Source: a candidate division FCPU426 bacterium
GTDB taxonomy: Bacteria > Oederibacteriota > Muellerivitia > Muellerivitales > Muellerivitaceae
NCBI GenBank assembly: GCA_023249615.1
Contig: JAHFCG010000001.1
Coordinates: 2,257-66,256, forward strand
DNA length: 64,000 nt
Reading direction: 5' to 3'
The translations under genes were made by a program, and so were the position numbers. Below, piece by piece: positions 4,801 to 62,148 of the stretch (positions within the stretch are counted from its first letter, which is position 1; each line of letters starts with the position of its first letter). The notes beneath the pieces are model-generated. The model saw nothing but the letters and a program-made list of their open reading frames with translations, had not been told where the DNA came from and searched no databases.

Positions 4801-7800
4801 GAATCCCATAACCGGGATTGGAAAGACTCGGGCTTCCCTGATTCGGATCGTGGTCAAGAATGGGCGCGTTCGAGTTGGAATCCTCGTTGATAATCCCAAA
4901 GTCAAACATGACCCATTTATCGATTCCGTCGTTGCAAATCCAGGTTTGAAAATAACGCGTATTGGACAAATCCGTTCCCGTGGCGGTTAAAACCTGCCTT
5001 ACCCCGGCCCAGTTCTGGCTGCTCAAGTGGGAGTAGGGAAATTGTAAAACGCTGACGACATCCTTTCCGTTTTGGGAAGAGGCCCAGGTATGTCCCCCAT
5101 AACCCGGGACACTGGTGTAATCCAGGCCGCCGGTTCCGTTTTGGGTCCCAATCTGCTGGAAATCCATTTGCGTCGCGGGAGCGCTATCATTGTAAAACCT
5201 GACCCTGTTATTGGTGAGGGTTTGGGATCCGTTGGGGGAAAGGCCGGGCAAAAAAGACGGAACGGCGAGTGGCGGGGAGGAAACCAGCCAATTGGTCGGG
5301 TTCATGGCGGGGCTGGTGGAATTATCTATTCCCTCCATGTTATCGATCATGGCCACCCCGCTTTCACCCTCGGCGTCGAAGGTGTTGGGGCTGAAATAAC
5401 TTTGAGCCACCTCACCCGACAATTTGATGTTCAAGGGCGGTTTCCAGTTTTCAAGCCCGGGGATAATTCCCGTTATGGATTGGAGGTCCTCCGGACTTAT
5501 GTCGTATTTGGCGTCCGCGTCCACGACGGCAAGGGAGTTCGGCGTTGACCCGATCTGGGGAACCTCATTGGGTTGTTGGGTGGTGGTGTAAAGGAAGGTG
5601 GAGCCAAGGAAGAAATGGTCCGTGAGGTCATATTCAGCCCTTGCCCCCAAAATATTGTTCTGGCCGAAGGAACCGAAAGGAGCGTACTCATAGGTCACCA
5701 CCACCTGGCTGTCCGGCCGCAAAAGGCTCTTATCCTGGAAATCCAGGAAGCCGGAGTTGTAATCAAAGAAATAATCGGCGTCCCTTTTCAGGCGGTGGCC
5801 GTCCAGGTAAACCGCCTCGCTTCCCCGGATGATGTTGAAGCGGTCGAGCCGGTAAAAATCCAGTTTGGTTTTATATTCCACGTGGATGCGCTTGGCGCTG
5901 GCGGGAGGGGAAGTTTGGCTGTAAACATCCCCCGGACCTGTTCCGGCGGAAGCGTCGATATTCGCGAAGGGCCTTTCCGGAAAATAAGGCGGAGCCGCGA
6001 AGGTCACGCTGGTATTGGTGACCGTTAAAAGATTCAGGTCCTGGTTGACCTGAAAGGCCCAGGGACCCGCGCCGCCGGTTTGAAGGGTGTTGTTGTTCCC
6101 CTGGTCAATGATTTGAAACAGGAATTCCGGGTCCTGCTGGGGCGGGACAATTTTATCCCGGCCCAGGTCAAAGTAATTCAAGAGGTAAAGCGGGCTCACG
6201 ACGGTTGAATTTTTATTGTCCTTGATTAAATAGGCCCGTCCCACATTGGTTACCAGTCCATTGGGATCAACCTGAAGGGTGTCCGGATTCGTCAGATCAA
6301 TTTGACCGCTCGGGTCATAACCGATGGAATTGTTGTTCCGGTCAATAAAGGCCACGGCGATCCGCGAGTTGAGGCTGAGGGCCCGGTTGAAGGTGATCAC
6401 CCCCGTGGAGTAATCGATGGTGTAATCCTTCCCCGGAAGCCAATGCTCGAAAAAACCCCGGAAAATTTTTGGATTGCTTTGATCCGGGAAAATCCCGTTG
6501 GCCGGATCCACCCAAATTTCCTCGCTGTTGCTCTGCGGCAGGGCGTTATTGACGACCTGACTGCCGATGGTGACGGGGCTGGAGGCCCGGGTAATCAAAA
6601 AATACCGGAAACGCATGTATTCAATGTCCTGGATGTCCCTTTTCACCTGGACATAGTTCCCCTTGAAGACCTTGGTTTCGGAAATTCCCTTGGTCTGGGC
6701 GAAAAAGGAGGAAAAGCGGAACCTGTCAAACTTCAATTTCGCCTGGAGGCCGAATAATTTTTTGCTGAAACCGGCGAACTCGGTATTCGGCAGGTAAAGA
6801 TCCAGATCGCCGAAAGCCACTTCCTGGATGGGGCTGTCCTCGTTCCCGTGGTAAACGATGGAAATATTTTGCTTGGTCTGGTCCACTCCCCCCGTCCCGG
6901 TGCCGTTGTTTCGATTCACGTCGCTGTAATCCACGTTGACGTCGACGTTCTTCCCCACCTTCCCCTGCAGGTTCACCACCAATTCCTGGTTGACCTGGGT
7001 ATTGTTGTTGTCGGCGGAAATGGCGGTAATTTTGGGATCACGGTTGAAATGCTGGAAGCTGAAAACCGCCTCAATTTTTTTGTACCCCTGGATCGAAAGC
7101 TGGGTATCCGCCGGCAATTGCAAATTGATGATCTTTTGCTGGGGAACGTCCAAGACCTTCTCTTCTTCCGGGGGCAGGGTGGCCTTGGGTTTGAGGGCTT
7201 CCGCCTTTTCCTCCTCCGTCAGGGGAATTTCCAGTCCCTGGGGAGTCACGGTATTTTCCTCGGAATAGGCGCCGACCGTTCCCTGCGAATCCACGGCGGC
7301 CACCACGTAAAAATAATCCTCACCGTTTTTGGGGGCCGAAAGACTGTTTTGGGCGCCGTCCAGGAAATAAGGGGCCGGCAGGGGTTTTAAATTGACCAAC
7401 TTGTATCCGATTCCAGGAACCGTCGAACGGTAGACGTTATAAGACACCACGTGGGAGGGCACCGGAGCGGAATCCCAGGAAAGATAAACGCCATCCTTGA
7501 GGGTCAGTATTTTGATGCCCGTGGGGACCGGAGGAGGGCCAAAGGAAGTCACGGGAGCCGAGGTGGCCCCGGGAGTGGGGGTGTTCCCAATGTAATCAAT
7601 CCCGTCCAGGACCTGGATTTCTTCCTGGGGGCTTAAGTTCAAATCCTTGGCGGGAGTGGTAATGCTTTTTTGCGACACAGGCCCTGGCGTGGGGGTTTGC
7701 GCGAACGCTGAATTCGACGCTGTTAGGAAAACTATCCCCAAAATGACCAGAAGGATCTTGGTTGGCCCCCCCAAAGAACCTGCCGGGCGGCAGGTTTTCT

Positions 7801-7879
7801 CCTGTCGATGGAACAGGGGAAAAGATTTGACGCCGGAGGGAGATGTAGTAATGGTTGTGGCCTTCCTGGTAAACATCAA
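1883..7879 (-). CDS. Giant (~1998 aa) secreted outer-membrane protein. It has an N-terminal signal peptide plus an Fn3-like module and a C-terminal beta-barrel signature (...EARF terminal Phe). It is possibly a SprA/Sov-like very large beta-barrel.
   Basis: Long ORF with an N-terminal hydrophobic stretch KILLVILGIVFLTASNSAFAQ and an N/T/S/G/Y/Q-rich composition typical of OM barrels, ending in a C-terminal Phe. The SprA assignment is inference only. The true start is probably downstream of the annotated M (possible TTG). Confidence 0.75.
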   Translation of the reverse strand: MMFTRKATTITTSPSGVKSFPLFHRQEKTCRPAGSLGGPTKILLVILGIVFLTASNSAFAQTPTPGPVSQKSITTPAKDLNLSPQEEIQVLDGIDYIGNTPTPGATSAPVTSFGPPPVPTGIKILTLKDGVYLSWDSAPVPSHVVSYNVYRSTVPGIGYKLVNLKPLPAPYFLDGAQNSLSAPKNGEDYFYVVAAVDSQGTVGAYSEENTVTPQGLEIPLTEEEKAEALKPKATLPPEEEKVLDVPQQKIINLQLPADTQLSIQGYKKIEAVFSFQHFNRDPKITAISADNNNTQVNQELVVNLQGKVGKNVDVNVDYSDVNRNNGTGTGGVDQTKQNISIVYHGNEDSPIQEVAFGDLDLYLPNTEFAGFSKKLFGLQAKLKFDRFRFSSFFAQTKGISETKVFKGNYVQVKRDIQDIEYMRFRYFLITRASSPVTIGSQVVNNALPQSNSEEIWVDPANGIFPDQSNPKIFRGFFEHWLPGKDYTIDYSTGVITFNRALSLNSRIAVAFIDRNNNSIGYDPSGQIDLTNPDTLQVDPNGLVTNVGRAYLIKDNKNSTVVSPLYLLNYFDLGRDKIVPPQQDPEFLFQIIDQGNNNTLQTGGAGPWAFQVNQDLNLLTVTNTSVTFAAPPYFPERPFANIDASAGTGPGDVYSQTSPPASAKRIHVEYKTKLDFYRLDRFNIIRGSEAVYLDGHRLKRDADYFFDYNSGFLDFQDKSLLRPDSQVVVTYEYAPFGSFGQNNILGARAEYDLTDHFFLGSTFLYTTTQQPNEVPQIGSTPNSLAVVDADAKYDISPEDLQSITGIIPGLENWKPPLNIKLSGEVAQSYFSPNTFDAEGESGVAMIDNMEGIDNSTSPAMNPTNWLVSSPPLAVPSFLPGLSPNGSQTLTNNRVRFYNDSAPATQMDFQQIGTQNGTGGLDYTSVPGYGGHTWASSQNGKDVVSVLQFPYSHLSSQNWAGVRQVLTATGTDLSNTRYFQTWICNDGIDKWVMFDFGIINEDSNSNAPILDHDPNQGSPSLSNPGYGIPTFYALGTPWNNSSPGSGAQFDPATGGFLGYQGEVSQEGVSNNLSSNTTYITEDMNGNGVLDTANSYFEYGVRVNWPYKTWKQVKIPINFTAPDALSFTSDGISYFFHQVGAPNPQIVKAVRVWTTGTTPAEVAGGFWIENIGFSRNLWQLEVDPDANANQSVTVNTGKFDVSSISHEQEPDRYQGILRFLTIATGQDQTAILNREKSLKITYNLSSADFEPANNINGKPIYYATRLYGQGLDFTDFQELRLDLQIKSYQPGEILFIRLGNDQKNFYQYNIQLVDKYLSTWNTLVIPLDGSKGNRLKVGKPFLNRSSQISFGVVSPNAPSAQSGELWINNLRTVSPAGRTGLARRVNAAFNLGDNFATVNTRYREVDSGFTQMDQTSTHFQHSRQLGADYSSNAVKLFGQPLSTDFHVTQQDTTTEEALKQNPYYLALPDTRVDNATGSIGYTKDLGPSFGRLTNVRVSGSTNYETDKYLDDYKTQPGVQGDTRKGQEVLNLNSTYDAPLKLFFLNIGTNQFNQTFTLTHDRQEFLSAPSPPALALANYDRTTRLQNYSWTNTTELVKNLVFTPGYSLSLIDAMGNTNSPGVQGTPVPDFVPFQQGYKPKIGMVFRGIPGITPQADYSGSNQYDFVSFPDGTRFTNANSQNLSVNLSPGIWFPLLQQIGVTIYGGWTENLTETIPNFGSVPVTEALTFEDKYTTWSKISKFALTGNKSDSEQVNGSFRLFDVWEFKPTGAWNQQESVLSRGANPIKQDGRTLGLTTNYTKRIFTVPFIKFNLNSAQFQYTRTENNQYDSSNPPIIDTQSYTDLYSFTFPYDINAKAQGNIHLQRTTGHTLTRQTETLPHDDLGYIEYTQKFAPNLEIHIPFTKWKLKLQDAIELRSTFSMEFIENDSNSVYTQIKTQKYRGTIDLTYNALKNLKVGIGLANEYFTNTTYELSPTYDPTDETKKNHTFDYTLWQGTISVEARF

Positions 7880-30848: not shown

Positions 30849-33296
30849 TTACGTGGCCGGAGCGGCCTCTGTTACGGCGGATTCCGACTTGGGAAATTCC
30901 TTGTAATCACATTCCTTATTGGGACAGGAAATATGGGGGCCAAGGGTTTTGGTGTACTTGTCCACCAAAAAGGGATTGGCGCATTGGGGGCAGGCCCTTG
31001 GCACCGGCTTGTTCCAGGAAACAAATTTACAATCGGGATACTTATTGCAGCCGTAGAAAATTCCCCTTCTTGAGCCCCTGGAAACCACATCCCCCCCGCA
31101 ACCCAACGGGCAGGCGATCCCCAATGAAATAGGTTTTGCGGTTTTGCACTCCGGGTATTTTGAACAAGCCAGGAATTTTCCGAACCGGCCCATTTTCACA
31201 ACCATTTCCGAACTGCACTTCGGGCACTTTTCGTCGGTTTTGGTATCGGTGTCCAATTGGATGGAGCCGTCGGAGGTTTCCTTGAGGCCCTTGGCGCTTT
31301 TGCATTCGGGGTATTTGGAACAGGCAAGGAATTTTCCGTGCCTTCCCCACTTTACGATCATCATCTGTCCGCATTTATCACAGGGAATATCGGTGACCTG
31401 TTCGATTTTGCTCTTTTCGGTGCCGATATGCTTGTCCGCTTCGTCAAGGGATGCCTTAAAGGGAACGTAAAACTCCTGAATAACCGAACGCCACTCCTGC
31501 TCCCCCGATTCAACCTGGTCCAGCTCCGTCTCCATTTTCGCCGTAAAAGCATAATCCAGAATCACCGGGAAATGCTTGATCAGGAGTTCATAAACCAGAT
31601 TTCCGAGCTCCGCCAGGAAAAACCTTCCGTTTTCTTTCTTAACGTAAAGACGGGTTTGGATGGTTTCCAAAGTCGGCGCGTATGTGGAGGGGCGGCCAAT
31701 CCCCATTTCCTCGAGGGTTTTAATCATGGAGGCGTCCGTGAAACGCGGTAATGGCTGTGTGAAATGTTGTTCCGGAATAGGAACCTGCCAAATCATTTTT
31801 TGCTTTTCCTCAATTCCCGATAATTTATTCGGGTTCACTTCCTCAGTGGCCTCAGTCCCCGCGTCAACTTCCTTTTTGTCCTCATCCGCGGCCTCCTCAT
31901 AAACTTTGGTATATCCCTCAAAGAGGGTTTCGGTCCCGCTGGCCCGAAAAACCGCGTCAGATCCGCTAATTTCAACACTGGTCTCCCGATAGAGGGCGTT
32001 GCTCATTTGGCTGGCGAGGAAATCCTCCCAAATCAGCTGGTAAAGCTTGAACTGCTCGGGAGTCAGGAAGTCCTTCATCTGGTCCGGAGTGCGGAAGGCC
32101 GAAGTTGGGCGGATGGCCTCATGAGCGTCCTGAATTTTTCCCTTGGAGGCCGTATCCCTGTCGCCGGGCCCGAGGTACTTGTCCCCATAGGTCTGGGCGA
32201 TGAATTTGGAAGCCTCGATTTTGGCGTCCGGGGAAATCCTCTTGGAATCCGTTCTCATATAAGTAATCAACCCAACAGGGGCTGATTCACCGATTTCAAT
32301 ACCTTCATATAAACCCTGGGCGATGGACATAGTCTTGCGGGCCCCAAACCTCAATTGTTTATAGGCTTCCTGTTGTAACTTGGAAGTAGTGAAAGGCATG
32401 GGGGGTTTTTTGGACTTTTCACGGTGAAGGACCGCCGATACGCTGAAATCAGCCCCTTTGAGCCGTTCAATCAGGGCCTGGGTTTCCACCTGGGTTTTCA
32501 AGTCGGGTTTCTCACCCTTCAGTTTGGCCAGTTTGGTCCGGACGATTCGCTTATCCTCGGTTAAAAAGTCGGCTTCAAGAGACCAATATTCAACGGGTTT
32601 AAAACCCTCAATTTCCTTTTCACGCTCATAAATTAACCGAAGTGCCACCGACTGGACACGGCCGGCGGAAAGTCCACGCCTTATGCTCTGGTGAAGGAAG
32701 GGGGAAATTTTATACCCCACCAACCTGTCCAAAACACGCCTCGCTTGCTGGGCATTGACCATGTTCAGGTCCACCTCGCTCGGGGACTTGATGGCCTCTT
32801 CAATGGCGGTTTTGGTGATTTCATTTAAACGAAGGCGGAAGATTGTCGGAACTTTTTCCATGGCGGTCAGAAAATTCTTGATGTGCCAGCCAATAGCCTC
32901 CCCCTCGCGGTCGGGGTCAGCGGCCAGGTAAACGGATTCGGCCTTCAGGGCGGCCTTTTTCAGTTCCTTAATAATGGATGCTTTCCCGCGGATAGGGCGG
33001 TAGGTGGGTTCAAAATTGTTGTCCACGTCCACGCTTAATTTGCTCTTGGGAAGGTCGATTAAATGGCCTTTGGAGGCCAGAACAAGATAATCAGAACCTA
33101 GGTATTTATTGATGGTTTTCGCTTTGGAGGGGGACTCAACAATAACCAATTTCTTCGCCGGTTCTTCTTTTTTCTTCCCTTTGGGTTTCTTGACCTTCAC
33201 GGCCTCGGCGGGCTTTGGGGTTTCGTCGCTGGAAGCTGGATCGGTTGCGAGGGATTCTTCACCATCGGTGATATCGGCGTTGGCTTTTTTTGCCAC
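30849..33296 (-). CDS. topA: DNA topoisomerase I with C-terminal zinc ribbons and an N-terminal Lys-rich extension
   Basis: LVIVESPSKAK Toprim, TopA core, and multiple C4 zinc-ribbon repeats (CDKCG...CSKYPECK). Confidence 0.95.
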   Translation of the reverse strand: MAKKANADITDGEESLATDPASSDETPKPAEAVKVKKPKGKKKEEPAKKLVIVESPSKAKTINKYLGSDYLVLASKGHLIDLPKSKLSVDVDNNFEPTYRPIRGKASIIKELKKAALKAESVYLAADPDREGEAIGWHIKNFLTAMEKVPTIFRLRLNEITKTAIEEAIKSPSEVDLNMVNAQQARRVLDRLVGYKISPFLHQSIRRGLSAGRVQSVALRLIYEREKEIEGFKPVEYWSLEADFLTEDKRIVRTKLAKLKGEKPDLKTQVETQALIERLKGADFSVSAVLHREKSKKPPMPFTTSKLQQEAYKQLRFGARKTMSIAQGLYEGIEIGESAPVGLITYMRTDSKRISPDAKIEASKFIAQTYGDKYLGPGDRDTASKGKIQDAHEAIRPTSAFRTPDQMKDFLTPEQFKLYQLIWEDFLASQMSNALYRETSVEISGSDAVFRASGTETLFEGYTKVYEEAADEDKKEVDAGTEATEEVNPNKLSGIEEKQKMIWQVPIPEQHFTQPLPRFTDASMIKTLEEMGIGRPSTYAPTLETIQTRLYVKKENGRFFLAELGNLVYELLIKHFPVILDYAFTAKMETELDQVESGEQEWRSVIQEFYVPFKASLDEADKHIGTEKSKIEQVTDIPCDKCGQMMIVKWGRHGKFLACSKYPECKSAKGLKETSDGSIQLDTDTKTDEKCPKCSSEMVVKMGRFGKFLACSKYPECKTAKPISLGIACPLGCGGDVVSRGSRRGIFYGCNKYPDCKFVSWNKPVPRACPQCANPFLVDKYTKTLGPHISCPNKECDYKEFPKSESAVTEAAPAT

Positions 33297-40207: not shown

Positions 40208-40618
40208 TCAAGCCCCGACGACCCGCTTCAAGGCTTCCTGGACGCGGGGCGGCTGGAAAGGTTTGATGATAAAGTCCCGAGCACCGGCCTGAATGGAATC
40301 AATAACCATGCTTTGCTGGCCCATGGCGCTTACCATGACGATTTTAGCCTCCGGGTCAAAGGCCCTGATTTCCCTAACGGCTTCAATGCCGTCCAATTCC
40401 GGCATGACAATATCCATGGTGACCAAATCAGGTTTTAATTTTTTATATAATTCCACGGCTTCCCGACCATTGGAAGCTTCCCCTGCCAATTCATAGGGTT
40501 CCCTTAAAATAATCCCCTTTAAGATGGTCCTCATGAAGGAGGAGTCGTCGCAAAATAAAACTTTGATGGCCAAGGCTTTTTCCTTATTTGGGGATTGCGG
40601 CTTCCGAATCCACGACAA
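40208..40618 (-). CDS. cheY: CheY-like single-domain response regulator
   Basis: VLFCDDSSFMR...DLVTMDIVMPELDGIEA. Confidence 0.85.
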   Translation of the reverse strand: MSWIRKPQSPNKEKALAIKVLFCDDSSFMRTILKGIILREPYELAGEASNGREAVELYKKLKPDLVTMDIVMPELDGIEAVREIRAFDPEAKIVMVSAMGQQSMVIDSIQAGARDFIIKPFQPPRVQEALKRVVGA

Positions 40619-41105
40619 CCCTTAGTCCCTCAAGATTAAAGGTCTTTTCCATGTTAAACAAAATAATTAACCGGTCCCGTACCGTCAATAACCCCTTCAC
40701 GAAATCAAGGGTGATATTCAGGACGGGCTGGGTGGCCTTCTCGATCGCGGTGGGGGAAACCCGTAAAACCTCCACCACCTTGTCCACGAGGAGCCCAAGC
40801 ATTTGGTCCTTGGTTTCCACGACCAGGATCCGGGTTTCCGGGGTCCTTTCCACCAAAGGCATTTCAAACCGTTTTTTAAGGTCCAAAACCGGAAAAATGC
40901 GGCCCCGGAGGTTGATTATCCCCTCCAGGTATTTTGGCGCCTTCGGCATGAGCGTAATTTCTGAAACCCGGATAATTTCCCGCACTTCCTGGATTTCCAG
41001 GGCAAGTTCACAACCCGAAAGGGTAAAAACCACAAGTTGAATCTCGGCCTTGTCCTTTGCCTGGGAGTTAAAAATTTCGGCAGTCGAAACGCTCATTCCA
41101 TTCAC
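40584..41105 (-). CDS. cheW: CheW coupling protein
   Basis: VVFTLSGCELALEIQEVREI... CheW fold, ~170 aa. Confidence 0.85.
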   Translation of the reverse strand: MNGMSVSTAEIFNSQAKDKAEIQLVVFTLSGCELALEIQEVREIIRVSEITLMPKAPKYLEGIINLRGRIFPVLDLKKRFEMPLVERTPETRILVVETKDQMLGLLVDKVVEVLRVSPTAIEKATQPVLNITLDFVKGLLTVRDRLIILFNMEKTFNLEGLRVVVDSEAAIPK

Positions 41106-41117
41106 CTCTTGGGTCGC

Positions 41118-41603
41118 TTAAATCACCAGATTGGGTTGATTCAATTTTCTTATTTCCACCTTTCCATCCGAAAGGGAGAAAAACATCGTCCTGCCCTGGG
41201 ACCCGCCAACCTCTTCACCTTTTATCCGAATCCCCTTTTCCCGCAGTATTTCCCGAATGGCCGAGGCATTCCTCATACCGATCGGAACAGCCTGCTGGGC
41301 GATGGAAACAAACATATTGGCCCCGCCGACCAATTTGGCCTCCACGGAGGTAAAATCGGCCCCTTCTTTCTTCATCCCGGCAAAAAGCGCGATCATGGCG
41401 GTGTCAGCGTACTTTCCAGGCACTGAAACCTGGGAATGCATTCGGCTGGAAGGTAGCATGATATGGGCAAGCCCGCCGATTTTTTTTACCCGGTCATAGA
41501 GGGTCACCGCTACGCAGGAACCAAGTCCGTAAGCCGCCAATCTTCCAGGATCCGTCGCCGTTTTGATTTCCGCGATTCCCACCACAAAATCATTTTCAGC
41601 CAT
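41118..41603 (-). CDS. cheD: Chemoreceptor glutamine deamidase CheD
   Basis: AYGLGSCVAVTLYDRVKKIGGLAHIMLP... conserved CheD catalytic region. Confidence 0.85.
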   Translation of the reverse strand: MAENDFVVGIAEIKTATDPGRLAAYGLGSCVAVTLYDRVKKIGGLAHIMLPSSRMHSQVSVPGKYADTAMIALFAGMKKEGADFTSVEAKLVGGANMFVSIAQQAVPIGMRNASAIREILREKGIRIKGEEVGGSQGRTMFFSLSDGKVEIRKLNQPNLVI

Positions 41604-42234
41604 CGCTGGGAAGTCCCAGTGATTTTGAGAATGCCGCGAAAAACTTTTTCAGGGAATCCGCCTCCGGCAAAAGGAAAAAACTGCCGGTCAATTGCTTGTC
41701 ATCCTCCAAAAACTGGGTTTCGATCACGATGGCCACTTCCTCCCGTTGCTCGAGTTCCACCAGGACTGTATCCAAAATCGCCTGGGCCATGTCAATCGCA
41801 AGGCTCGGAACCCCGTGAATGAGCTGAAGGTTGATAAAACGGAAGAGGGCGCTCAAGTAAGAGCCGGTCAGAATGCTTCCCAACTCCTTGATGGCTGATT
41901 GGCCCAGCTCGGAAAGGTTATTGGGATCTTCTTCCTTCCTGCCGATCAGCATCGCGGAAAGCTCCGGCAGTCGTTCCAGGGGAAAAAAAATGAGGGCAAT
42001 GCCGAGCATCTCCCCATAAACCGGCATATGAACCGCGGCGACATTTTTCTCAATTCCACCCAAGAAACCGGCGATGGCGTCAGCGGGAAGGACAAGCACC
42101 TTCGTGACCGACATATCAACTCTTTTGCCCACCATTTGGGATAGGGCGGTCGCGGCGTTTCCGGCCCCGATATTTCCGATTTCCCTCAGGGCGTCCAGCT
42201 GAAATTCGGTAAAGGGTTTTGAATCATTGGCCAT
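41596..42234 (-). CDS. cheC: Second CheC-family phosphatase
   Basis: LDALREIGNIGAGNAATALSQMVGKRV... Confidence 0.8.
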   Translation of the reverse strand: MANDSKPFTEFQLDALREIGNIGAGNAATALSQMVGKRVDMSVTKVLVLPADAIAGFLGGIEKNVAAVHMPVYGEMLGIALIFFPLERLPELSAMLIGRKEEDPNNLSELGQSAIKELGSILTGSYLSALFRFINLQLIHGVPSLAIDMAQAILDTVLVELEQREEVAIVIETQFLEDDKQLTGSFFLLPEADSLKKFFAAFSKSLGLPSDG

Positions 42235-42301
42235 AGGATCTGCCTTTCGGGGTTCCGTGTTCGGGTCGAGACGATTGAAGACTGATCAACACTGGGGGGG
42301 T

Positions 42302-42664
42302 TCAGCCCAGAACTTTTTTAACGGCCTCAAGAACATTGGAGGGTTGAAAGGGTTTTACGATGAAATCTTTCGCTCCCGCCTGGATGGCTTCAACCACCAG
42401 GGATTGCTGGCCCATGGAACTGCACATCAAAATTTTGGCGGCAGGATTCCCCTTCACAATTTCACGGACGGCGTCAATACCGCCCATTTCAGGCATGATA
42501 ATGTCCATGATCACGAGGTCGGGCTTCAGGGTTTTATACTGCTCAACGGCTTTGGCCCCGTTTTCGGCCTCCCCGATCACCTCATAACCCGAACCCACCA
42601 GAATGTTTTTCAACATCATCCGCATGAATGAAGCGTCATCCACCAGCATTACGCGATGAGCCAC
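42302..42664 (-). CDS. cheY: CheY-like response regulator
   Basis: VMLVDDASFMR...DLVIMDIIMPEMGGIDA. Confidence 0.85.
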   Translation of the reverse strand: MAHRVMLVDDASFMRMMLKNILVGSGYEVIGEAENGAKAVEQYKTLKPDLVIMDIIMPEMGGIDAVREIVKGNPAAKILMCSSMGQQSLVVEAIQAGAKDFIVKPFQPSNVLEAVKKVLG

Positions 42665-42758
42665 GACTTCCTCCCCAAACTAAATTTTGAATTTTTAATT
42701 CTTAATTTTTAACAGGCGACCCAATCAAGAATTTAAAATTAAACATTAACAATAGCTT

Positions 42759-43097
42759 TTATAAGGCGTTCTCACCCCGCTCGCCAGTTCGGACCCGGAT
42801 CGCGTCCTCCAGGGGCATTATAAAAAATTTCCCGTCGCCCACCCGCCCCGTACGGACGGTTTCCAGCAAAAGCTCCACCACCTTTTCAATCTCATCGTCG
42901 GGAAGGGCGATTTCAAGGCGTGTTCTCGGCTGGTATTGTACCTTATAATCGGCGCCCTTCACCGCCTCCACCTGGACTTTCTGATACCCGTAGCCGGAAC
43001 CATCCGAAATGGTCACGCCCCGAACACCCGCCTCCCACAGTACTTTTTTAACCTGATCTATTTTTTTGGGGGTAATCACGCAGACAAGAAGTTTCAT
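42759..43097 (-). CDS. PII (GlnB/GlnK-like) signal-transduction protein
   Basis: 112 aa; MKLLVCVITPKK...GYGYQKV...KGADY (T-loop with Tyr)...GRVGDGKFFIMPLEDAIRVRTGE matches the PII fold end to end. Confidence 0.75.
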   Translation of the reverse strand: MKLLVCVITPKKIDQVKKVLWEAGVRGVTISDGSGYGYQKVQVEAVKGADYKVQYQPRTRLEIALPDDEIEKVVELLLETVRTGRVGDGKFFIMPLEDAIRVRTGERGENAL

Positions 43098-43104
43098 GGA
43101 ATTC

Positions 43105-45357
43105 CTATTTAATCAGTTTGGATTGGCTCGCGCTCGGGGAAATCTGAAGTTCTTTTTTCCAGGCCTGAATCTGCTGGATCACATCCACCGCCTGAAGAGC
43201 CTTTTCCTCGTCGGGATTCGGGGAATCCAGGTATTTTTGGAATTCCTTGATTGCCTCATCCCACCAGCTTTTATACCTGTAAACCTGGGCTAGATGGAAA
43301 TGAATTTCATTTAAATTTGGCTCCAGTTCCTGACTTTTTTTCAGTTCTACCAGGGCCTCGTCCCACCATTGACGGCTGATATAAACCCTTCCTAATTGAA
43401 GGTGAGCCTCGGGATAAAGGGGATCGCACGAGACGGCCCTTGCCAGGACCTTTACCGCGTCGTCCAGGGACTGGGTAAGAAGATAAACCTCGCCCAACCG
43501 GGTAAGCGCCTCCCTGTTTTTGGGGCTGAGACGGATGGCTTCCTGGAATTCCTGGATTGCTTCGGGGAATTGGCCCGTGCTTTTATAAAGGTTGCCCAGG
43601 TTAAAATGGAGGCTTGGGTTTTCCGGATCCGCCATGATTTGTTTGATCAGGACTTCCGAGGCCTCGGACAGGACATTTTTTTTCTTTAAAGCGACGGCAA
43701 GGTTGTTTTGGGCCGTCTTATAGTCCGGTTCGATATCAACGGCTTTTTTGAAGGCCTCAATCGCCTTTTCGTATTGGCTTTGTTTGAAATAAACAACCCC
43801 CAGGTTGTTGTAAGCCTTGGCGTATTTGGGATTAAGTTGAATGGCCTGTTGATAATGTTGAATCGCCTCCGGAACCAACCCCGCGTTTTTGTAGGCGACC
43901 CCGAGGCTGTTATGGATAATCGGGTTTTTGGGGTCAAATTCCATTGCCTTTTTGTATTCCGCGATGGCTTCCTCAAACCGGCCCTTGTCGGCGAAGGCAA
44001 GGCCCAAATAAGTCAGCGCCTCGGCGCTGGAGGCGATGGAGACATTCAATTCGATGGCCTGGGAAATTTCACGAATGGCTTCGTCGTAAAGGTTGACCTT
44101 GTAATAGTAAACCCCCAGGTAGTAATGGGCCTCGGCGTTTTGGGGATCAATTTCCAGGGCCTGCCGAACCTCCCTGGTCGCCTTTTCACTTTCCCCCATT
44201 TTGAAATAAGTGACCCCCAATTCAAAATGGGCCATGCTGGACCCGGGGACCAGTTCAATGGCCTTTGTAAATTGGACGGCGGCCTGATCGGTTCGATTAA
44301 GCTCACGCAGGGCGATTCCGGCCTGAATATAATTTTCGACGTGCCCGGGAGCCAATTCAATGGCTTTCCGGGAGGCGGCCAAAGCGTCCTCGAACATCCC
44401 CTTCAACAGATACAGCTCGCCCACCGCGCGAAAAAGCTTTTCCTCGTTCGGCATGGCCTCAATGGCCCTCCGGTATTCCCGGAGAGCCTCCTCAAGCAGG
44501 CCTTTTCCCTTGTAAGCTGCGGCCAAACTCAGATAAGTTTCCGCGTTGGAAGTTCCGGCTGGTTGAGCCGCGACCTTTTCGGCCACCTTTTCTTCCATGG
44601 TTTTCGGCCGTTCGATCGCCAAAAGCGCCTGGGCCCCCTGGCCGAAATTGGGGTTTAAATCGACCGCCTTTTTGAATTCCCTCTCGGCTTCCTCCAGCAT
44701 GTTTTTATCCCCATAAACGAAACTCAAATTGTAATGGGCAATGGCATAATCCGGGTTCAGGGAAATGGCCTTTTTAAATTCGATCAACGCCTCATTGATC
44801 ATGGCCTTTTTGTAATAAACCTCGCCAAGATTGTTGTGGAGGTCGGCGAAATAGGGATTTTTGTCAATGGCCTTTCGAAACTCGACCATAGCTTGGTCAA
44901 AATTTCCCATGGCCTTGTGGGCTATCCCCAGGTAATTTCGGGCGAAGGGATGGTCCTGATTCAGCAGGAGGGTTTTCTGGTATTCCTCCACTGCCTTTTC
45001 GTATTGCCCGGTGTAACGATACGCGTTGGCCAGGTTATAAAAGGCCTCGGCATCCTGGGGAAACATCTGGACTGATTTTTTGTAGGCCTCGATGGAACGG
45101 TCATAAAGCCCCGTGTGACGGTTGACGGATTTCAGGTTTTCCTGTGCCTGGGCGTTTTCCGGCTCGACTTCCAGGGCCGTCTTGAATTCCTTGATGGCCT
45201 CCGCGTACATTCCCTTGGAATAATAAAAAACCCCAAGGTTGTTATGGGTGGAGGCATCGCCCTGGTCCGAGCCGTGGGCCATTTCACGGATGGTTTTCGT
45301 TTCAGGGCGGGAAGGCATAATCAACCTCGGAGGAAGGCAATGATAGGGTTTTTTCAT
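43105..45357 (-). CDS. Large TPR-repeat protein (~750 aa)
   Basis: About 20 consecutive 34-residue TPR units (AxxxYxxAlxlxP pattern). Confidence 0.8.
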   Translation of the reverse strand: MKKPYHCLPPRLIMPSRPETKTIREMAHGSDQGDASTHNNLGVFYYSKGMYAEAIKEFKTALEVEPENAQAQENLKSVNRHTGLYDRSIEAYKKSVQMFPQDAEAFYNLANAYRYTGQYEKAVEEYQKTLLLNQDHPFARNYLGIAHKAMGNFDQAMVEFRKAIDKNPYFADLHNNLGEVYYKKAMINEALIEFKKAISLNPDYAIAHYNLSFVYGDKNMLEEAEREFKKAVDLNPNFGQGAQALLAIERPKTMEEKVAEKVAAQPAGTSNAETYLSLAAAYKGKGLLEEALREYRRAIEAMPNEEKLFRAVGELYLLKGMFEDALAASRKAIELAPGHVENYIQAGIALRELNRTDQAAVQFTKAIELVPGSSMAHFELGVTYFKMGESEKATREVRQALEIDPQNAEAHYYLGVYYYKVNLYDEAIREISQAIELNVSIASSAEALTYLGLAFADKGRFEEAIAEYKKAMEFDPKNPIIHNSLGVAYKNAGLVPEAIQHYQQAIQLNPKYAKAYNNLGVVYFKQSQYEKAIEAFKKAVDIEPDYKTAQNNLAVALKKKNVLSEASEVLIKQIMADPENPSLHFNLGNLYKSTGQFPEAIQEFQEAIRLSPKNREALTRLGEVYLLTQSLDDAVKVLARAVSCDPLYPEAHLQLGRVYISRQWWDEALVELKKSQELEPNLNEIHFHLAQVYRYKSWWDEAIKEFQKYLDSPNPDEEKALQAVDVIQQIQAWKKELQISPSASQSKLIK

Positions 45358-45940
45358 CCACTAGCTTATCCGGGTTCAAAACGGAGTAAATATCCTCCTT
45401 GATTTTTCCGAGACAATAATACAAATCGTTCTTTTTCCCGAAGAGGTAGGGGGGGCAGGGCTCAATCTGGTCAATCTTCAAACGGGCCACCTCCCTGACC
45501 TGGTCCACCCACAAAATAAAGGGAAGCCCCTTTTTTTCCAGGACGATAAACCAAGTTCCCTTGCTCGCGGGGACGGCTCCCAACCCAAGGAATTTCCGGA
45601 AGGATAAAACCGGAAAAACTTTTCCCCTTAAAATCAACTCACCCTCCCAAAAATCCTGGGGCTGGGCCAGGGGACGCAAAATGGAATGTTTCAAAACCTC
45701 CCGAACCCGGTAGGTTTCGATTCCATAAAGCTCATTTTCCACCTGAAAGGTCAAAACCATCATTCCCTGCATCACCTGGAGGATATCCCGTTCCTCCACA
45801 AAACCGAGGCGCACGAGAACCTTGCCAATGGGCTCGTGGTTTTTTTTCTGCTCCCCCAAGGCCACCTGTATCTGGCGCGAGGTTATTTTTCCAGCCTGGC
45901 GGAGAAGTTCTCCCAGGGATTTTTCCTGCGGTTTCATCAT
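45302..45940 (-). CDS. MshEN (T2SSE_N-like c-di-GMP-binding) domain fused to a CheW-like domain
   Basis: N-terminal SLGELLRQAGKITSRQIQVALGEQ fits the MshEN 24-mer RLGxxLLxxGLLxxxxLxxxLxxQ. The C-terminal half is CheW-like (LTFQVENELYGIETYRVREV). Confidence 0.6.
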   Translation of the reverse strand: MMKPQEKSLGELLRQAGKITSRQIQVALGEQKKNHEPIGKVLVRLGFVEERDILQVMQGMMVLTFQVENELYGIETYRVREVLKHSILRPLAQPQDFWEGELILRGKVFPVLSFRKFLGLGAVPASKGTWFIVLEKKGLPFILWVDQVREVARLKIDQIEPCPPYLFGKKNDLYYCLGKIKEDIYSVLNPDKLVDEKTLSLPSSEVDYAFPP

Positions 45941-47121
45941 ACGACGGTGCTCCCCTTCATGATTTTAAGGTTGTTTTTCAAAATTTCATTGGTCGGGTCC
46001 AAGGCCAGGGACTTTTCCCAATGGTCAAGGGCCATTTGTTTTTCACCCTTTTTCATATATATATTTCCCAATTTTGAATGGGCGTCCGCGTGGGTCGGAT
46101 TAAGGCTTAACAGTTTTTCATATTCCACGATCGCCTCATCAAAGTGGCCCAATTTGTAGTTCAGGTTTCCCAAATTATCCAGGATCAGGACATCGTTTGG
46201 GTTGATTAATTTCGCTGCCTTATATTCCTCCAGGGCCTTTTGAATGTCCCCTTGTTTATCATAAATATAACCCAAAACGTTGTGAACGCTGGCGTCATTT
46301 GGGTTAATTTCCATCACTTTTCGGTACATCTTGATCGCGTCCTCATGAAGTCCGCGGCCCGCGTAAATCATCCCCAGCTTGAGATAAACCTCGGCGTTGT
46401 TGGGATTTTTTTCGCGGGCCTGCTTTAAAACCTCGATCGCCTTGTCATATTGCCCCAGTGACATAAAGGCGTGTCCCATTTTCAAATGGGCTTCCGGTTC
46501 ATGGGGGTTGAGTTTCAGCGCCTGCTGGTATTGAACCAGGGCTTCCGGGTACATCCCGCGTTTGGAATAGGCGTTCCCCAGAATGGCGTAAACGGCCGCA
46601 TGCCTCGGGTTGGCGATTAGGGCCTTTTCGTAGGCTGAGATGGCCTCGTCCAAATGACCGGATTGTTCGCAGGCATATCCCATCTTGAAATAGATTTCCG
46701 CGTTGCTCGGATTTATGGCGGTGTAATTCTTGTATTGTTCAACGGCCTCCTGGTAGGCCCCCATTTTCGCGTAAACATTCCCCAGGTTGTTAAAGAGGCC
46801 GGCGTCGCCCGGATTAAGTTCGATTGATTTTTTGAATTCCAAAACAGCATCGGGGTATTTCCCCTGAATCTCCAAAAGGAGCCCCAATTTACAATGCGCG
46901 TTAAGGTTCATGGGGTTTATTTCGAGGGACTTCCGGTAATAGGATTCCGCTTCGGGATAATTTCCCATATTGGTGCAAAGGGCTCCCAAATGAAACAATA
47001 TTTCTCCGTCATTGGGGGTTAATTCGAGGGCTTTTTTAAACTCAACCAGCGCGTCCTCATACCGCTTGGAAAGCGTAAAAGCCGTCCCGAGATTGATATG
47101 ATCCTGCGCCTTATCCATCAC
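45937..47121 (-). CDS. TPR-repeat protein (~394 aa)
   Basis: About 11 TPR units. Confidence 0.8.
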   Translation of the reverse strand: MMDKAQDHINLGTAFTLSKRYEDALVEFKKALELTPNDGEILFHLGALCTNMGNYPEAESYYRKSLEINPMNLNAHCKLGLLLEIQGKYPDAVLEFKKSIELNPGDAGLFNNLGNVYAKMGAYQEAVEQYKNYTAINPSNAEIYFKMGYACEQSGHLDEAISAYEKALIANPRHAAVYAILGNAYSKRGMYPEALVQYQQALKLNPHEPEAHLKMGHAFMSLGQYDKAIEVLKQAREKNPNNAEVYLKLGMIYAGRGLHEDAIKMYRKVMEINPNDASVHNVLGYIYDKQGDIQKALEEYKAAKLINPNDVLILDNLGNLNYKLGHFDEAIVEYEKLLSLNPTHADAHSKLGNIYMKKGEKQMALDHWEKSLALDPTNEILKNNLKIMKGSTVV

Positions 47122-59037: not shown

Positions 59038-61587
59038 CTATTCCGTAGGTGGCATCTGTTCGAAAATTTTATACATTTCTTCGTTACTTTTTAATTTTGC
59101 CCGCTCTTCCAAGATTTTATTTTTTTCAACTTCAACCATTGTTGCGGGCGCCTTCTTCAAAAATTCTTGGTTTGAAAGTCTCCCCTTCTTCGACTCGATT
59201 GATTTTTCCAATCTTTCCATTTCTTTTTTCAGTCTATTCATTTCAACGTTCTTGTTAATAAAACCCTCAACATGAAAACACAATTCACCGCCGCCAATCG
59301 GGACAGCGACCGCCAATGGAGAACGACCGATCAAATGTTCAAAATCCCGTTCATTAATGCGGGCTAAAAGTTTTAGGATTTTTACGTTTTCCTTCAACTG
59401 AAGGAATACACTTCTTTCCCCAACAAAAGTGATTTTTATCTCGGCACCAGGCAGAACACTCAGTTCACCGCGAATAACGCGAATTGCAGTTATAGCCTCT
59501 TTTAGCAACTCAAAGTCCTTGACGGCTTTTTCATCCGCCGGATAATCCCCCGGCAGGGGCCAAGAGGATTTCATGATGCTTTCCGAACGCCCCGGCAGTT
59601 TGAACCACAATTCCTCGGTCACGAACGGAATCACGGGATGAAGAAGACGCAAAACTCCCTCCAGAACCGCGATAACAACGGACGCGGCAAGTTTCTTTTC
59701 CGGAGAGTCGGGCTCCAGATAAAGCCTGGGCTTCAACGCCTCCAGGTACCAGTCGCAAACTTCGTTCCACAAAAAGCGGTAGAGGGTTTGGGAAAACTCG
59801 GCCACCCGGTATTTTTCGTAGTCGGAAGTAACCTCCGCGGTGACTTGGGAAAGGCGGGTCAGGATCCACCTGTCCTCAAGCTTCAAATTCTCCCAGTCTG
59901 GTTTTTCCAAGGGTTTCACTTCAGTACCATCCGCCAACCCCATCAAAACAAACCTTGTCGCGTTATAAAGTTTATTGACGAAATTCCGGCAGGATTCCAG
60001 CTTTTGGGGCGTCAAAGCGACATAACGCTGTTTGGTCTCGATGGAGGTCAGGGTAAACCGTAGGGCATCGGTTCCGTACTTATCGATCAAATCCAGTGGA
60101 TCGACCACATTCCCTTTCGACTTGCTCATCTTCTTGCCTTCGGCGTCCGCCACCAGGGAATACATGTAAACTTCCCGAAAAGGAACGTCGCCCATGAATT
60201 TCATTCCCATCATCATCATTCGCGCGACCCAGAAAAATATTATGTCCCAGCTCGTCACCAAAACAGTGGTGGGATAAAAAAGTTGGAGGTCATTTGTTTT
60301 TTCAGGCCAACCCAGCGTGGAAAAAGGCCACAACCCGGAAGAAAACCAGGTGTCCAGAACATCCGGATCCTGTTCAAACTTGGCTCCCTTGCACTTGGAA
60401 CATGTTTTCGGCTGGGTTTCAGACGCGGTCTGAATTCCACAATCCTGGCAGGTATAAACGGGGATTCGGTGCCCCCACCAAAGCTGGCGGCTGATGCACC
60501 AATCGTGGATGTTCGTCAGCCATTTTTCAAATTCACCCCGCCAGGCCTCCGGGACGAATTTGGTTTTTCCCTCGGCCACGGCCTTCAGCGCCAAATCCGC
60601 CAAAGGTTTCATTTTCACGAACCATTGCTTGGAATAGTAGGGCTCCACCACCGTCCCGCAGCGGGAACAATGACCGACATTGTGTTCATGCGGCTCCACC
60701 TTGATAAGGGTTCCCAGCGCCTCCAGATCCGCCACGATTTTTTTGCGGGCGTCCAACACCCGCATCCCTTTGTAGATGCCGGCGTTTTCGTTCAGGGTCC
60801 CGTCGGGGTTCAGGATGTTGACCCGGGGGAGCTGATGCCGGTTCCCCATGGCGAAGTCGTTGAAATCATGGGCGGGAGTGATCTTGACGACGCCGGTTCC
60901 GAATTCCTTGTCCACCGAATCGTCCTGGATAATGGGAATCCGCCGGTTGACCAGGGGAAGGTTCACCGATTTTCCCACCAATCCGGCGTAGCGGTAATCT
61001 TCCGGGTGAACGGCGACCGCGGTATCGCCCAAAAGCGTCTCGGGTCTTGTGGTGGCCACTTCCAGACCGTCGGCGGTGTCATGAACAAAGGAATAGCGGA
61101 GATGGTAAAAATTTCCTTGGATGGTTTTGTGTTCCACCTCGATATCCGAAAGCGCCGTTTGGCACCTGGGGCACCAGCTGATGAGGTAGTAATCCTGGTA
61201 AATCAATTTTTCGTTGAAAAGATCGATAAAAACTTTTTGAACCGCGCGGGACAATCCATCGTCCATCGTGAAACGCTCGCGGGTCCAGTCGCAGGAAGCC
61301 CCCAGTTTTCGCAGTTGGCCCATGATGGTAGCGCCGTACTTCTCCTTCCATTCCCAGGTCCGTTTAATAAACGCCTCCCGGCCCAGATCATGACGGGACT
61401 TCCCTTCTTTTTTAAGCTCCCTCTCAACAACGTTTTGGGTGGCGATTCCCGCGTGGTCGCAGCCCGGAAGCCAAAGTACATTGAACCCATTCATGCGCTT
61501 GTACCGGGCGATCAGGTCCTGAAGCGTGACATTGAGGGCGTGGCCGATATGGAGGCTTCCCGTGACATTGGGAGGAGGAATCACCAT
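59038..61587 (-). CDS. valS: Valine--tRNA ligase, main frame. The N-terminal ~33 codons appear to lie in another frame (see findings), with the probable real start at about 61688.
   Basis: MVIPPPNVTGSLHIGHALN (HIGH region)...KMSKSKGNV, anticodon-binding domain and C-terminal coiled coil. Confidence 0.9.
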   Translation of the reverse strand: MVIPPPNVTGSLHIGHALNVTLQDLIARYKRMNGFNVLWLPGCDHAGIATQNVVERELKKEGKSRHDLGREAFIKRTWEWKEKYGATIMGQLRKLGASCDWTRERFTMDDGLSRAVQKVFIDLFNEKLIYQDYYLISWCPRCQTALSDIEVEHKTIQGNFYHLRYSFVHDTADGLEVATTRPETLLGDTAVAVHPEDYRYAGLVGKSVNLPLVNRRIPIIQDDSVDKEFGTGVVKITPAHDFNDFAMGNRHQLPRVNILNPDGTLNENAGIYKGMRVLDARKKIVADLEALGTLIKVEPHEHNVGHCSRCGTVVEPYYSKQWFVKMKPLADLALKAVAEGKTKFVPEAWRGEFEKWLTNIHDWCISRQLWWGHRIPVYTCQDCGIQTASETQPKTCSKCKGAKFEQDPDVLDTWFSSGLWPFSTLGWPEKTNDLQLFYPTTVLVTSWDIIFFWVARMMMMGMKFMGDVPFREVYMYSLVADAEGKKMSKSKGNVVDPLDLIDKYGTDALRFTLTSIETKQRYVALTPQKLESCRNFVNKLYNATRFVLMGLADGTEVKPLEKPDWENLKLEDRWILTRLSQVTAEVTSDYEKYRVAEFSQTLYRFLWNEVCDWYLEALKPRLYLEPDSPEKKLAASVVIAVLEGVLRLLHPVIPFVTEELWFKLPGRSESIMKSSWPLPGDYPADEKAVKDFELLKEAITAIRVIRGELSVLPGAEIKITFVGERSVFLQLKENVKILKLLARINERDFEHLIGRSPLAVAVPIGGGELCFHVEGFINKNVEMNRLKKEMERLEKSIESKKGRLSNQEFLKKAPATMVEVEKNKILEERAKLKSNEEMYKIFEQMPPTE

Positions 61588-61710
61588 GCTAAAATTGGGT
61601 TTTTGGGAAACCCGTGAAGCGGTAAAGACCCCTCAACTTCCTTGGGCTCATAGGCTGGGGGAAGGTTTATATTCTGGTTTTCTTGCATTATTTTTCTCGT
61701 TTAAATTTTT

Positions 61711-62082
61711 TTACGCAGATAACGGCCGGTAAAGACCGATGGGTTCAAAAAGGGTTAACCAGTCTCCGAATTTCCATTTTTTTCTTCCAAAGTTCAGCAA
61801 AAGACAAACCTTAAGCTTGGTTGCTTTCAAATAGTTGTAACACTGGGCGACGTGAGCCGGATCCAAAATTTTAACCGCTTTTAACTCAACCAATACGCAT
61901 ACCTCAACCAACAAATCCGCGATATGTTCACCGACAAAAACCCCGTCGTACATTACCCGAATGGCAAACTGCTGTTTGACTTCATGTCCTTCTTTCCGCA
62001 ATTCGTGAGCCAAGGCATTTTCATAAATCTTTTCAAAAAAAACCCGCGCCCAATTCACCACCAACTTTAAAAGCATGCCCAA
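61711..62082 (-). CDS. GxxExxY family protein (PD-(D/E)XK-like)
   Basis: YENALAHELRKEGHEVKQQ...DLLVE..VLVELKAV...YNYLKATKLKVCLLLNFG matches the family pattern. Confidence 0.7.
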   Translation of the reverse strand: MGMLLKLVVNWARVFFEKIYENALAHELRKEGHEVKQQFAIRVMYDGVFVGEHIADLLVEVCVLVELKAVKILDPAHVAQCYNYLKATKLKVCLLLNFGRKKWKFGDWLTLFEPIGLYRPLSA

Positions 62083-62148
62083 TCACTTTTTCGGTTATGG
62101 CGTCCAACTCACCCGCGAATTTATTGGGCATTATTTCCCCACTTCGTT

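Follow-up and report, generated by a model that had tools for sequence, protein, structure and literature searches.

The subject of this report is the valine--tRNA ligase gene (valS) of a candidate division FCPU426 bacterium, as it stands in a 64,000-nt stretch of genome assembly GCA_023249615.1 (contig JAHFCG010000001.1, positions 2,257–66,256 of the forward strand). This whole stretch is hereafter called the window, and all positions refer to it unless another sequence is named. The source NCBI record is 72,547 nt long and is probably a metagenome-assembled genome (MAG). Within the window, valS is divided between two reading frames near its 5′ end, and an initial annotation, made from the nucleotide sequence by itself, had placed the division at a run of five adenines. 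Here, we describe the locus, compare it with orthologues and with independent assemblies of the same population, and outline why the division is very probably a product of the assembly rather than of the organism.

Organization of valS in the window

The main valS open reading frame (ORF) lies on the minus strand at 59038–61587 and encodes 849 aa beginning with MVIPPPNVTG, as the initial annotation had stated and the ORF list bears out; by that list and by profile search, the gene is otherwise intact. Its product is a valine--tRNA ligase (valyl-tRNA synthetase, ValRS), scoring 1160 bits against NF004349 (cut-off 704) and 1083 bits against TIGR00422 (cut-off 612), and both the SLHIGH (HIGH) and KMSKS motifs lie within it. 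The match to NF004349 covers profile positions 34–856 of 860, and close orthologues (70–80% identity in a protein search) are 884–890 aa long; the N-terminus is therefore missing from this ORF. In particular, it does not contain the segment Y-x-P...E-x-(K/R)-W-Y-x-x-W-E that a full-length ValRS carries before PPPNVTG. The orthologue P0002, at 80% identity, matches valS in a single frame.

Immediately 5′ of the ATG, the main frame contains 15 further genuine codons, GVFTASRVSQKPNFS (61588–61632, minus strand), which directly follow a TGA at 61633–61635. This TGA is the in-frame stop, 16 codons upstream of the MVIPPPNVTG ATG, that had been reported before. The true start of the gene and its codons 1–20, MQENQNINLPPAYEPKEVEG, occupy 61629–61688 of the minus strand in another frame, where they open a 35-aa ORF (61581–61688, minus strand; MQENQNINLPPAYEPKEVEGSLPLHGFPKNPILAW) that overlaps the 849-aa ORF by 7 nt (61581–61587). 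The earlier proposal that this upstream ORF is the ValRS N-terminus holds for codons 1–20, which resemble those of orthologues, but not for the remainder of the 35 aa, which down to 61581 is out-of-frame read-through.

The two frames part at a junction marked by a GGGG run of the minus strand (61629–61632), where, by DNA alignment and contig termini, 31 nt present in all relatives are absent; the window sequence across it is GAAGTTGAGGGGTCTTTACCG. The plus-strand T5 (minus-strand A5) to which the split had been assigned is indeed present, at 61600–61604. Conservation extends to the first 20 codons of the gene, and no other decay is seen in it.

Position and size of the lesion

Forty-odd close orthologues share, in a protein alignment, the arrangement M...LPPAYEPKDVE-ARWYEIWEKS-GVFTAAQDSQKPAFSMVIPPPNVTG, and across the region of the lesion orthologue proteins read ...EPKDVEARWYEIWEKSGVFTA... 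The upstream frame of the window is homologous to them only as far as ...EPKEVEG, with orthologue residues 5–22 placed by tblastn at 61682–61629 (frame −3). The tblastn match of P0002 begins exactly at 61632, the first codon past the TGA, and GVFTASRVSQKPNFS (61588–61632) is collinear with orthologue residues 32–46, matching GVFTAAQDSQKPAFS. Orthologous 5′ ends carry a conserved peptide upstream of MVIPPP, and their alignment refutes an undercounted A5 run.

This is seen most directly in a DNA alignment of the valS 5′ region of the window with that of five relatives (L001, L086, L087, L005 and L006). The window has one contiguous 31-column gap, at GTTGA|GGGGTC in the G-run 61629–61632, which sits 25 nt upstream of the A5 run. 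Downstream of the gap, the alignment is in perfect register through the A5 run (orthologue CCCAAAAACC); the run (61600–61604) encodes the Q-K-P of S-Q-K-P-N-F, for which orthologues have S-Q-K-P-A-F. The split is thus not at the A5 homopolymer, which is in register with the orthologues, but at the G-run with its 31 missing nucleotides. A loss of this size (3n + 1) takes out the conserved (A/G)RWYxxWEKS segment, and valS residues 23–31 had no tblastn match anywhere in the window, a search that covered inversion and an intervening sequence.

Among homologues, PPPN was placeable in 117, of which 115 are unsplit, and W-x3-W is kept 26–27 residues before PPPN in 111 of the 115 that are full length. 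An intact valS of the same species was sought in several ways: a protein search returned no sequence with an identity between 80% and 100%, two scans of metagenome DNA had 0 matches, and a scan of genome_contigs gave only relatives at no more than 69% identity.

Several versions of the N-terminus were scored against NF004349 over their first ~140 residues. The truncated ORF reached 194.1 bits, aligned from profile position 34; the A5 repair (one added A), 201.9 bits, aligned from residue 29 only; a junction placed at the G-run, 206.9 bits, aligned from residue 17; and the G-run junction supplemented with ten orthologue residues, 231.8 bits, the alignment of the upstream peptide then beginning at profile position 3. 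This final construct includes borrowed orthologue sequence, and its score shows placement and is not proof. The gain over the truncated ORF is 8 bits for the A5 repair versus 38 bits for the G-run junction with ten residues, and the upstream peptide reaches profile position 3 only when the missing ten residues are put back. Adding one A to the A5 run does fuse the two frames arithmetically, as had been noted before, but the product, ...EVEGSLPLHGFPKKPNFS, contains an out-of-frame SLPLHGFPK and lacks RWYxxWEKS. Far from fitting the usual ValRS arrangement, such a fused N-terminus aligns to ValRS profiles only over its later part, as the scores indicate.

Contig termini in independent assemblies

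The same population was found in two other assemblies through exact-protein look-ups of neighbouring genes. In ENA ERZ27286489, contig k141_2164961 (16,812 nt) matches the window over 2,372 nt at 100% identity; it carries accA, an amidase gene, the Germane gene, PDDEXK_3 and 20 valS codons, and ends ...GAAGTTGAGGGG (...GAGGGG) at window position 61629. Facing it, ENA contig k141_11923951 (39,610 nt; 99.97% identity, no gaps) and the Logan contig SRR14366763_278112 (5,463 nt; 99.93% identity, no gaps) share a start at 61631, which reads GGGTCTTTACCG (GGGTCTTT; GGGTCTTTACCGCTTCACGGG...).

The window junction, GAGGGGTC, is the maximal suffix–prefix merge of these contig ends, GAGGGG + GGGTC over GGG (61629–61631), and the junction string GAGGGGTCTTT corresponds to the longest end overlap (GGG) of the facing termini. 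No contig retrieved by exact-protein look-up spans the valS junction, and exact look-ups of the 849-aa, 35-aa and 274-aa ORFs found none on record. With ~2 contig boundaries in 64 kb, the chance that one falls within 2 nt of the lesion is ~1e-4. Two marks of a contig join are present: the lesion lies at contig termini of independent assemblies, and the junction is the merge of those termini, with sequence carried by relatives missing.

A Logan contig (window 23257–20306) runs without gaps across the other boundary, at ~22.0–22.3 kb. At this site, k141_11923951 (predicted end ~22022) and k141_5067956 (terminus 22324) appear to overlap by ~300 nt. Over window 61631–48028 and 23257–15421, the ENA, Logan and window versions differ by a few single-nucleotide polymorphisms (SNPs; 4 in 13.6 kb, 4 in 5.5 kb), which are partly shared, and an intergenic C4/C5 length difference between assemblies is found at ~18364. 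These between-assembly differences indicate closely related strains in the sample, together with differing allele choices by the assemblers.

Origin of the split

We consider it very probable that the valS split is an assembly stitching error, in which ~28 nt remained unassembled and a trivial overlap served to join two contig ends. A short stretch would not have been assembled from the reads, being either uncovered at modest depth or locally unresolvable; it would comprise valS codons 23–31 (RWYxxWEKS) plus one base. All assemblers would then halt at the same last solid bases, with one contig end stopping past valS codon 22 (...GAAGTTGAGGGG) and the other starting at the second base of codon 32 (GGGTCTTTACC...). 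The pipeline that produced the NCBI contig would have merged these ends on GGG, their longest overlap, at the cost of 3 more nucleotides, and the resulting 28 + 3 = 31-nt (3n + 1) hole would shift the frame and create the TGA. Gene callers would restart at the conserved Met of ...FSMVIPPPNVTG, and the real valS would be intact, with a product of about 888 aa.

Errors documented in MAGs include scaffold joins whose consensus is unsupported (Chen, Anantharaman, Shaiber, Eren and Banfield 2020, Genome Res 30:315; PMC7111523). The split is present in the file, but not at the A5 homopolymer, and it is most probably an ordinary stitching error and not a biological feature. The first of the two options offered in the initial annotation, a homopolymer sequencing or assembly indel, was correct in spirit in that it named an artefact, but its mechanism, site and size were wrong, the loss being of 31 nt at a contig junction and not of 1 nt.

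Some considerations weigh against a stitching error. That the junction lacks read support is something we infer rather than observe. The end points of the NCBI contig differ from those of the ENA contigs, so that it stems from another assembly run. An overlap of 3 nt is below the minimum overlaps of common scaffolders. Were the missing stretch to start with GGG-C and finish with GGG-G, two GGGG runs would lie exactly 31 nt apart, and a real slipped-strand deletion would produce the same outcome. Finally, related strains are present in the sample (4 SNPs per 5–14 kb between assemblies), and a real indel polymorphism could likewise break assembly graphs at the junction.

Alternative explanations

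One alternative is a polymorphic, real 31-nt deletion, arisen by slippage between GGGG repeats 31 nt apart and present beside an intact allele, with the NCBI assembly taking the deleted path and the others stopping on both sides. We regard it as unlikely. A codon 22 of GGG (as in L005, P0011–13 and P0020) with a codon 32 of GGG-G would space the repeats exactly 31 nt, the flanking direct repeats of the undeleted allele being deduced from GAGGGG in L005 and CCGGGG in L006; strain microdiversity is visible between the assemblies; and k141_2164961 ends exactly at the last base that both alleles would share. However, a two-allele branch predicts that the downstream contig starts with GGGG, whereas GGG is observed in both assemblers, and a GGG start would require that codon 32 of the intact allele not encode Gly. 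Small bubbles are usually popped by assemblers and not left as two dead ends, neither path was found in any retrieved contig, and a deletion allele would leave an essential enzyme truncated or inactive. It is highly improbable that a genuine 31-nt deletion allele exists and that the cell lives on a reinitiated MVIPPPNVTG ValRS without the N-terminal 45 residues, including the near-universal class Ia W-x3-W.

More improbable still is a fixed truncation, in which ValRS would be made from the internal ATG at 61587 by termination–reinitiation after the 35-codon ORF, with the N-terminal 45 residues lost. The stop of that ORF overlaps the ATG (ATGgTGA, 61581–61587), and the remaining valS is intact with all its motifs. 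Against this, reads would cover a real fixed deletion and assemblers would pass through it, and it would not yield facing contig ends at its borders in two other assemblies. No Shine-Dalgarno-like sequence precedes the internal ATG, the fixed spacing of W-x3-W from PPPN in nearly all full-length homologues speaks against the loss, the one further homologue that looks ‘truncated’ is itself broken (see below), and the first 20 codons have not decayed.

Programmed −1 frameshifting that joins the frames in vivo, e.g. by a slip of tRNA-Gly on G_GGG at the junction, is scarcely credible. By inspection of the sequence, re-pairing after a slip on GAG GGG T would be perfect, and the product would read ...EVEGVFTAS...; against this, inspection of 61581–61635 found no X_XXY_YYZ heptamer in the 16-codon overlap (zero-frame codons GGG TCT TTA CCG CTT CAC GGG TTT CCC AAA AAC CCA ATT TTA GCA TGG), and Rfam gave 0 matches at E up to 1 over 58.5–64 kb. 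Frameshifting would also not restore the 10 conserved residues, which are encoded nowhere in the window; the split is conserved in no relative, the break in L005 differing in site and kind; and the contig termini account for the junction. The authentic frameshift that the initial annotation had offered as its second option fails on the same grounds, namely 115 of 117 homologues unsplit, no slippery heptamer, and missing residues that the window does not encode.

A one-base undercount of A5/T5, by sequencing error or real slippage, deserves equally little credence: it would imply A6 and an N-terminus ...GSLPLHGFPKKPNFS, and the added base joins both ORFs arithmetically, but S-Q-K-P-N-F matches orthologues in the main frame base for base through A5, the repaired protein (aligned from residue 29 only, +8 bits) is still ~10 residues short, and homopolymers of 7–9 nt are in frame throughout the window.

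Quality of the surrounding assembly

Ten syntenic genes around valS (accA, amidase, the Germane-domain gene, nadC, birA, coaX, TPR, TMEM260-like, T2SSE and a 139-aa gene) are each in a single frame relative to L001. Nine small adjacent genes were checked as well; these are full-length or have no domain matches, and none is split. Domain matches are full length for the CheY-like, two CheW, CheD and UPF0047 genes. The window is 92% coding, and 71 of its 84 homopolymers of at least 7 nt, A9 and T9 included, lie within long open ORFs, 2 of the 71 being in the PDDEXK_3 gene. Pervasive homopolymer or indel error is ruled out by the single-frame syntenic genes, the complete domains of the small genes, and the runs in open ORFs.

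Elsewhere in the window, a chemotaxis cluster on the minus strand (40208–47121) comprises a CheY-like receiver, two CheW, CheD and CheC genes plus larger ORFs, and each of its small genes is matched by a domain over the full length; a topoisomerase I gene is found at 30849–33296, and a very large ORF of 1,998 aa at 1883–7879 (minus strand).

The neighbouring PDDEXK_3 gene and nearby repeats

Between the Germane-domain gene and valS lies a probable PDDEXK_3 (GxxExxY-type, PF13366) pseudogene (61745–62131, minus strand), which is not part of the valS lesion. This insertion is absent from all relatives and has a lower GC content (0.41–0.43). It contains compensating shifts, +1 at a minus-strand T8 (plus-strand A8, 62035–62042) and −1 at a minus-strand A7 (plus-strand T7, 61777–61783), such that the first 32 codons and the final 10 share a frame that differs from that of the middle part. 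The PF13366 match rises from 107 bits (profile 15–108) as the sequence stands to 131 bits (profile 2–116 of 117) after both repairs. The gene is probably a real pseudogene rather than an error because both shifts recur in the independent ENA contig k141_2164961.

An 11-mer direct repeat, GGTCTTTACCG, abuts the junction at 61620–61630 (minus strand), with an exact second copy 107 nt upstream, just after the PDDEXK_3 stop (61727–61737, minus strand); the two copies bracket the valS 5′ untranslated region and codons 1–19. Repeats of at least 11 nt with a spacing of up to 200 nt number 8 in the 64-kb window, which puts the post hoc probability of one ending no more than 2 nt from the junction at ~0.0025. 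Neither copy has recombinant flanks, and no mechanism was found that links the repeat to the hole; nor could any mechanism be tied to a 9-nt inverted repeat around the PDDEXK_3 gene.

A second broken valS

In one relative, valS is also called from MVIPPPN. This is P0009 (73% identity), encoded on L005 (GCA_025980505.1, JAICXI010000218.1), a 4.3-kb MAG contig. Its 46-aa upstream ORF holds a complete N-terminus (...EGRWYPEWEKSGIFTASQDPGKPPFAW*; L005:1145–1290), and the frame is broken by the lack of a single T in CCCTTT(T)GCATGG. We considered this gene as a recurrence that might hint at biology and rejected it, given that the lesion is different (a 1-nt loss) and at a different site; the L005 split, too, probably reflects an error in a draft assembly. 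Breaks near the N-terminus leave a long ORF and for that reason are over-represented among near-full-length matches.

Implications for annotation

In the organism itself, valS is almost certainly normal, and the split carries little biological weight. The truncated 849-aa ‘ValRS’ (P0001) and the spurious 35-aa ORF from this record are, however, already in public protein collections. A stitched join of this kind is recognizable without reads, by a lesion located at facing contig ends elsewhere and by missing bases that are conserved in every relative. For curation, 61629–61632 would be better represented as a gap, or filled in from the reads.

Comparison with known systems

The closest parallel is offered by local assembly errors and scaffold joins in MAGs (PMC7111523), with which valS shares a join consensus found in no independent contig retrieved, the loss of tens of bases, and a wrong coding sequence in databases (the 849-aa P0001). 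That class is defined by a lack of support at the level of reads, whereas here the evidence, from contig termini of other assemblies, is indirect. Homopolymer-length errors, of the 454, Ion Torrent or nanopore type, similarly present one gene as two overlapping ORFs in a draft, but the valS lesion is of 31 nt at a G4 run that forms contig ends and not of 1 nt in A5. As in slipped-strand (microhomology) deletions, direct repeats could flank the hole, here GGGG runs at a spacing of exactly 31 nt; unlike in such deletions, its borders coincide with assembly dead ends, and the repeats are read from relatives.

Essential bacterial genes with programmed frameshifts are represented by dnaX (−1) and prfB (+1). 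Like these, valS in the window is an essential gene read in two overlapping frames; unlike them, it has neither a slippery site nor a stimulator, its split is not conserved, and some of the protein is not encoded at all. A naturally split class Ia synthetase exists in the alpha/beta LeuRS of Aquifex aeolicus, which resembles the present case in being an aminoacyl-tRNA synthetase spread across two ORFs. The LeuRS pieces, however, are large, conserved and complete, whereas the upstream piece of valS amounts to 20 genuine codons, with 10 conserved residues missing between it and the rest of the enzyme.

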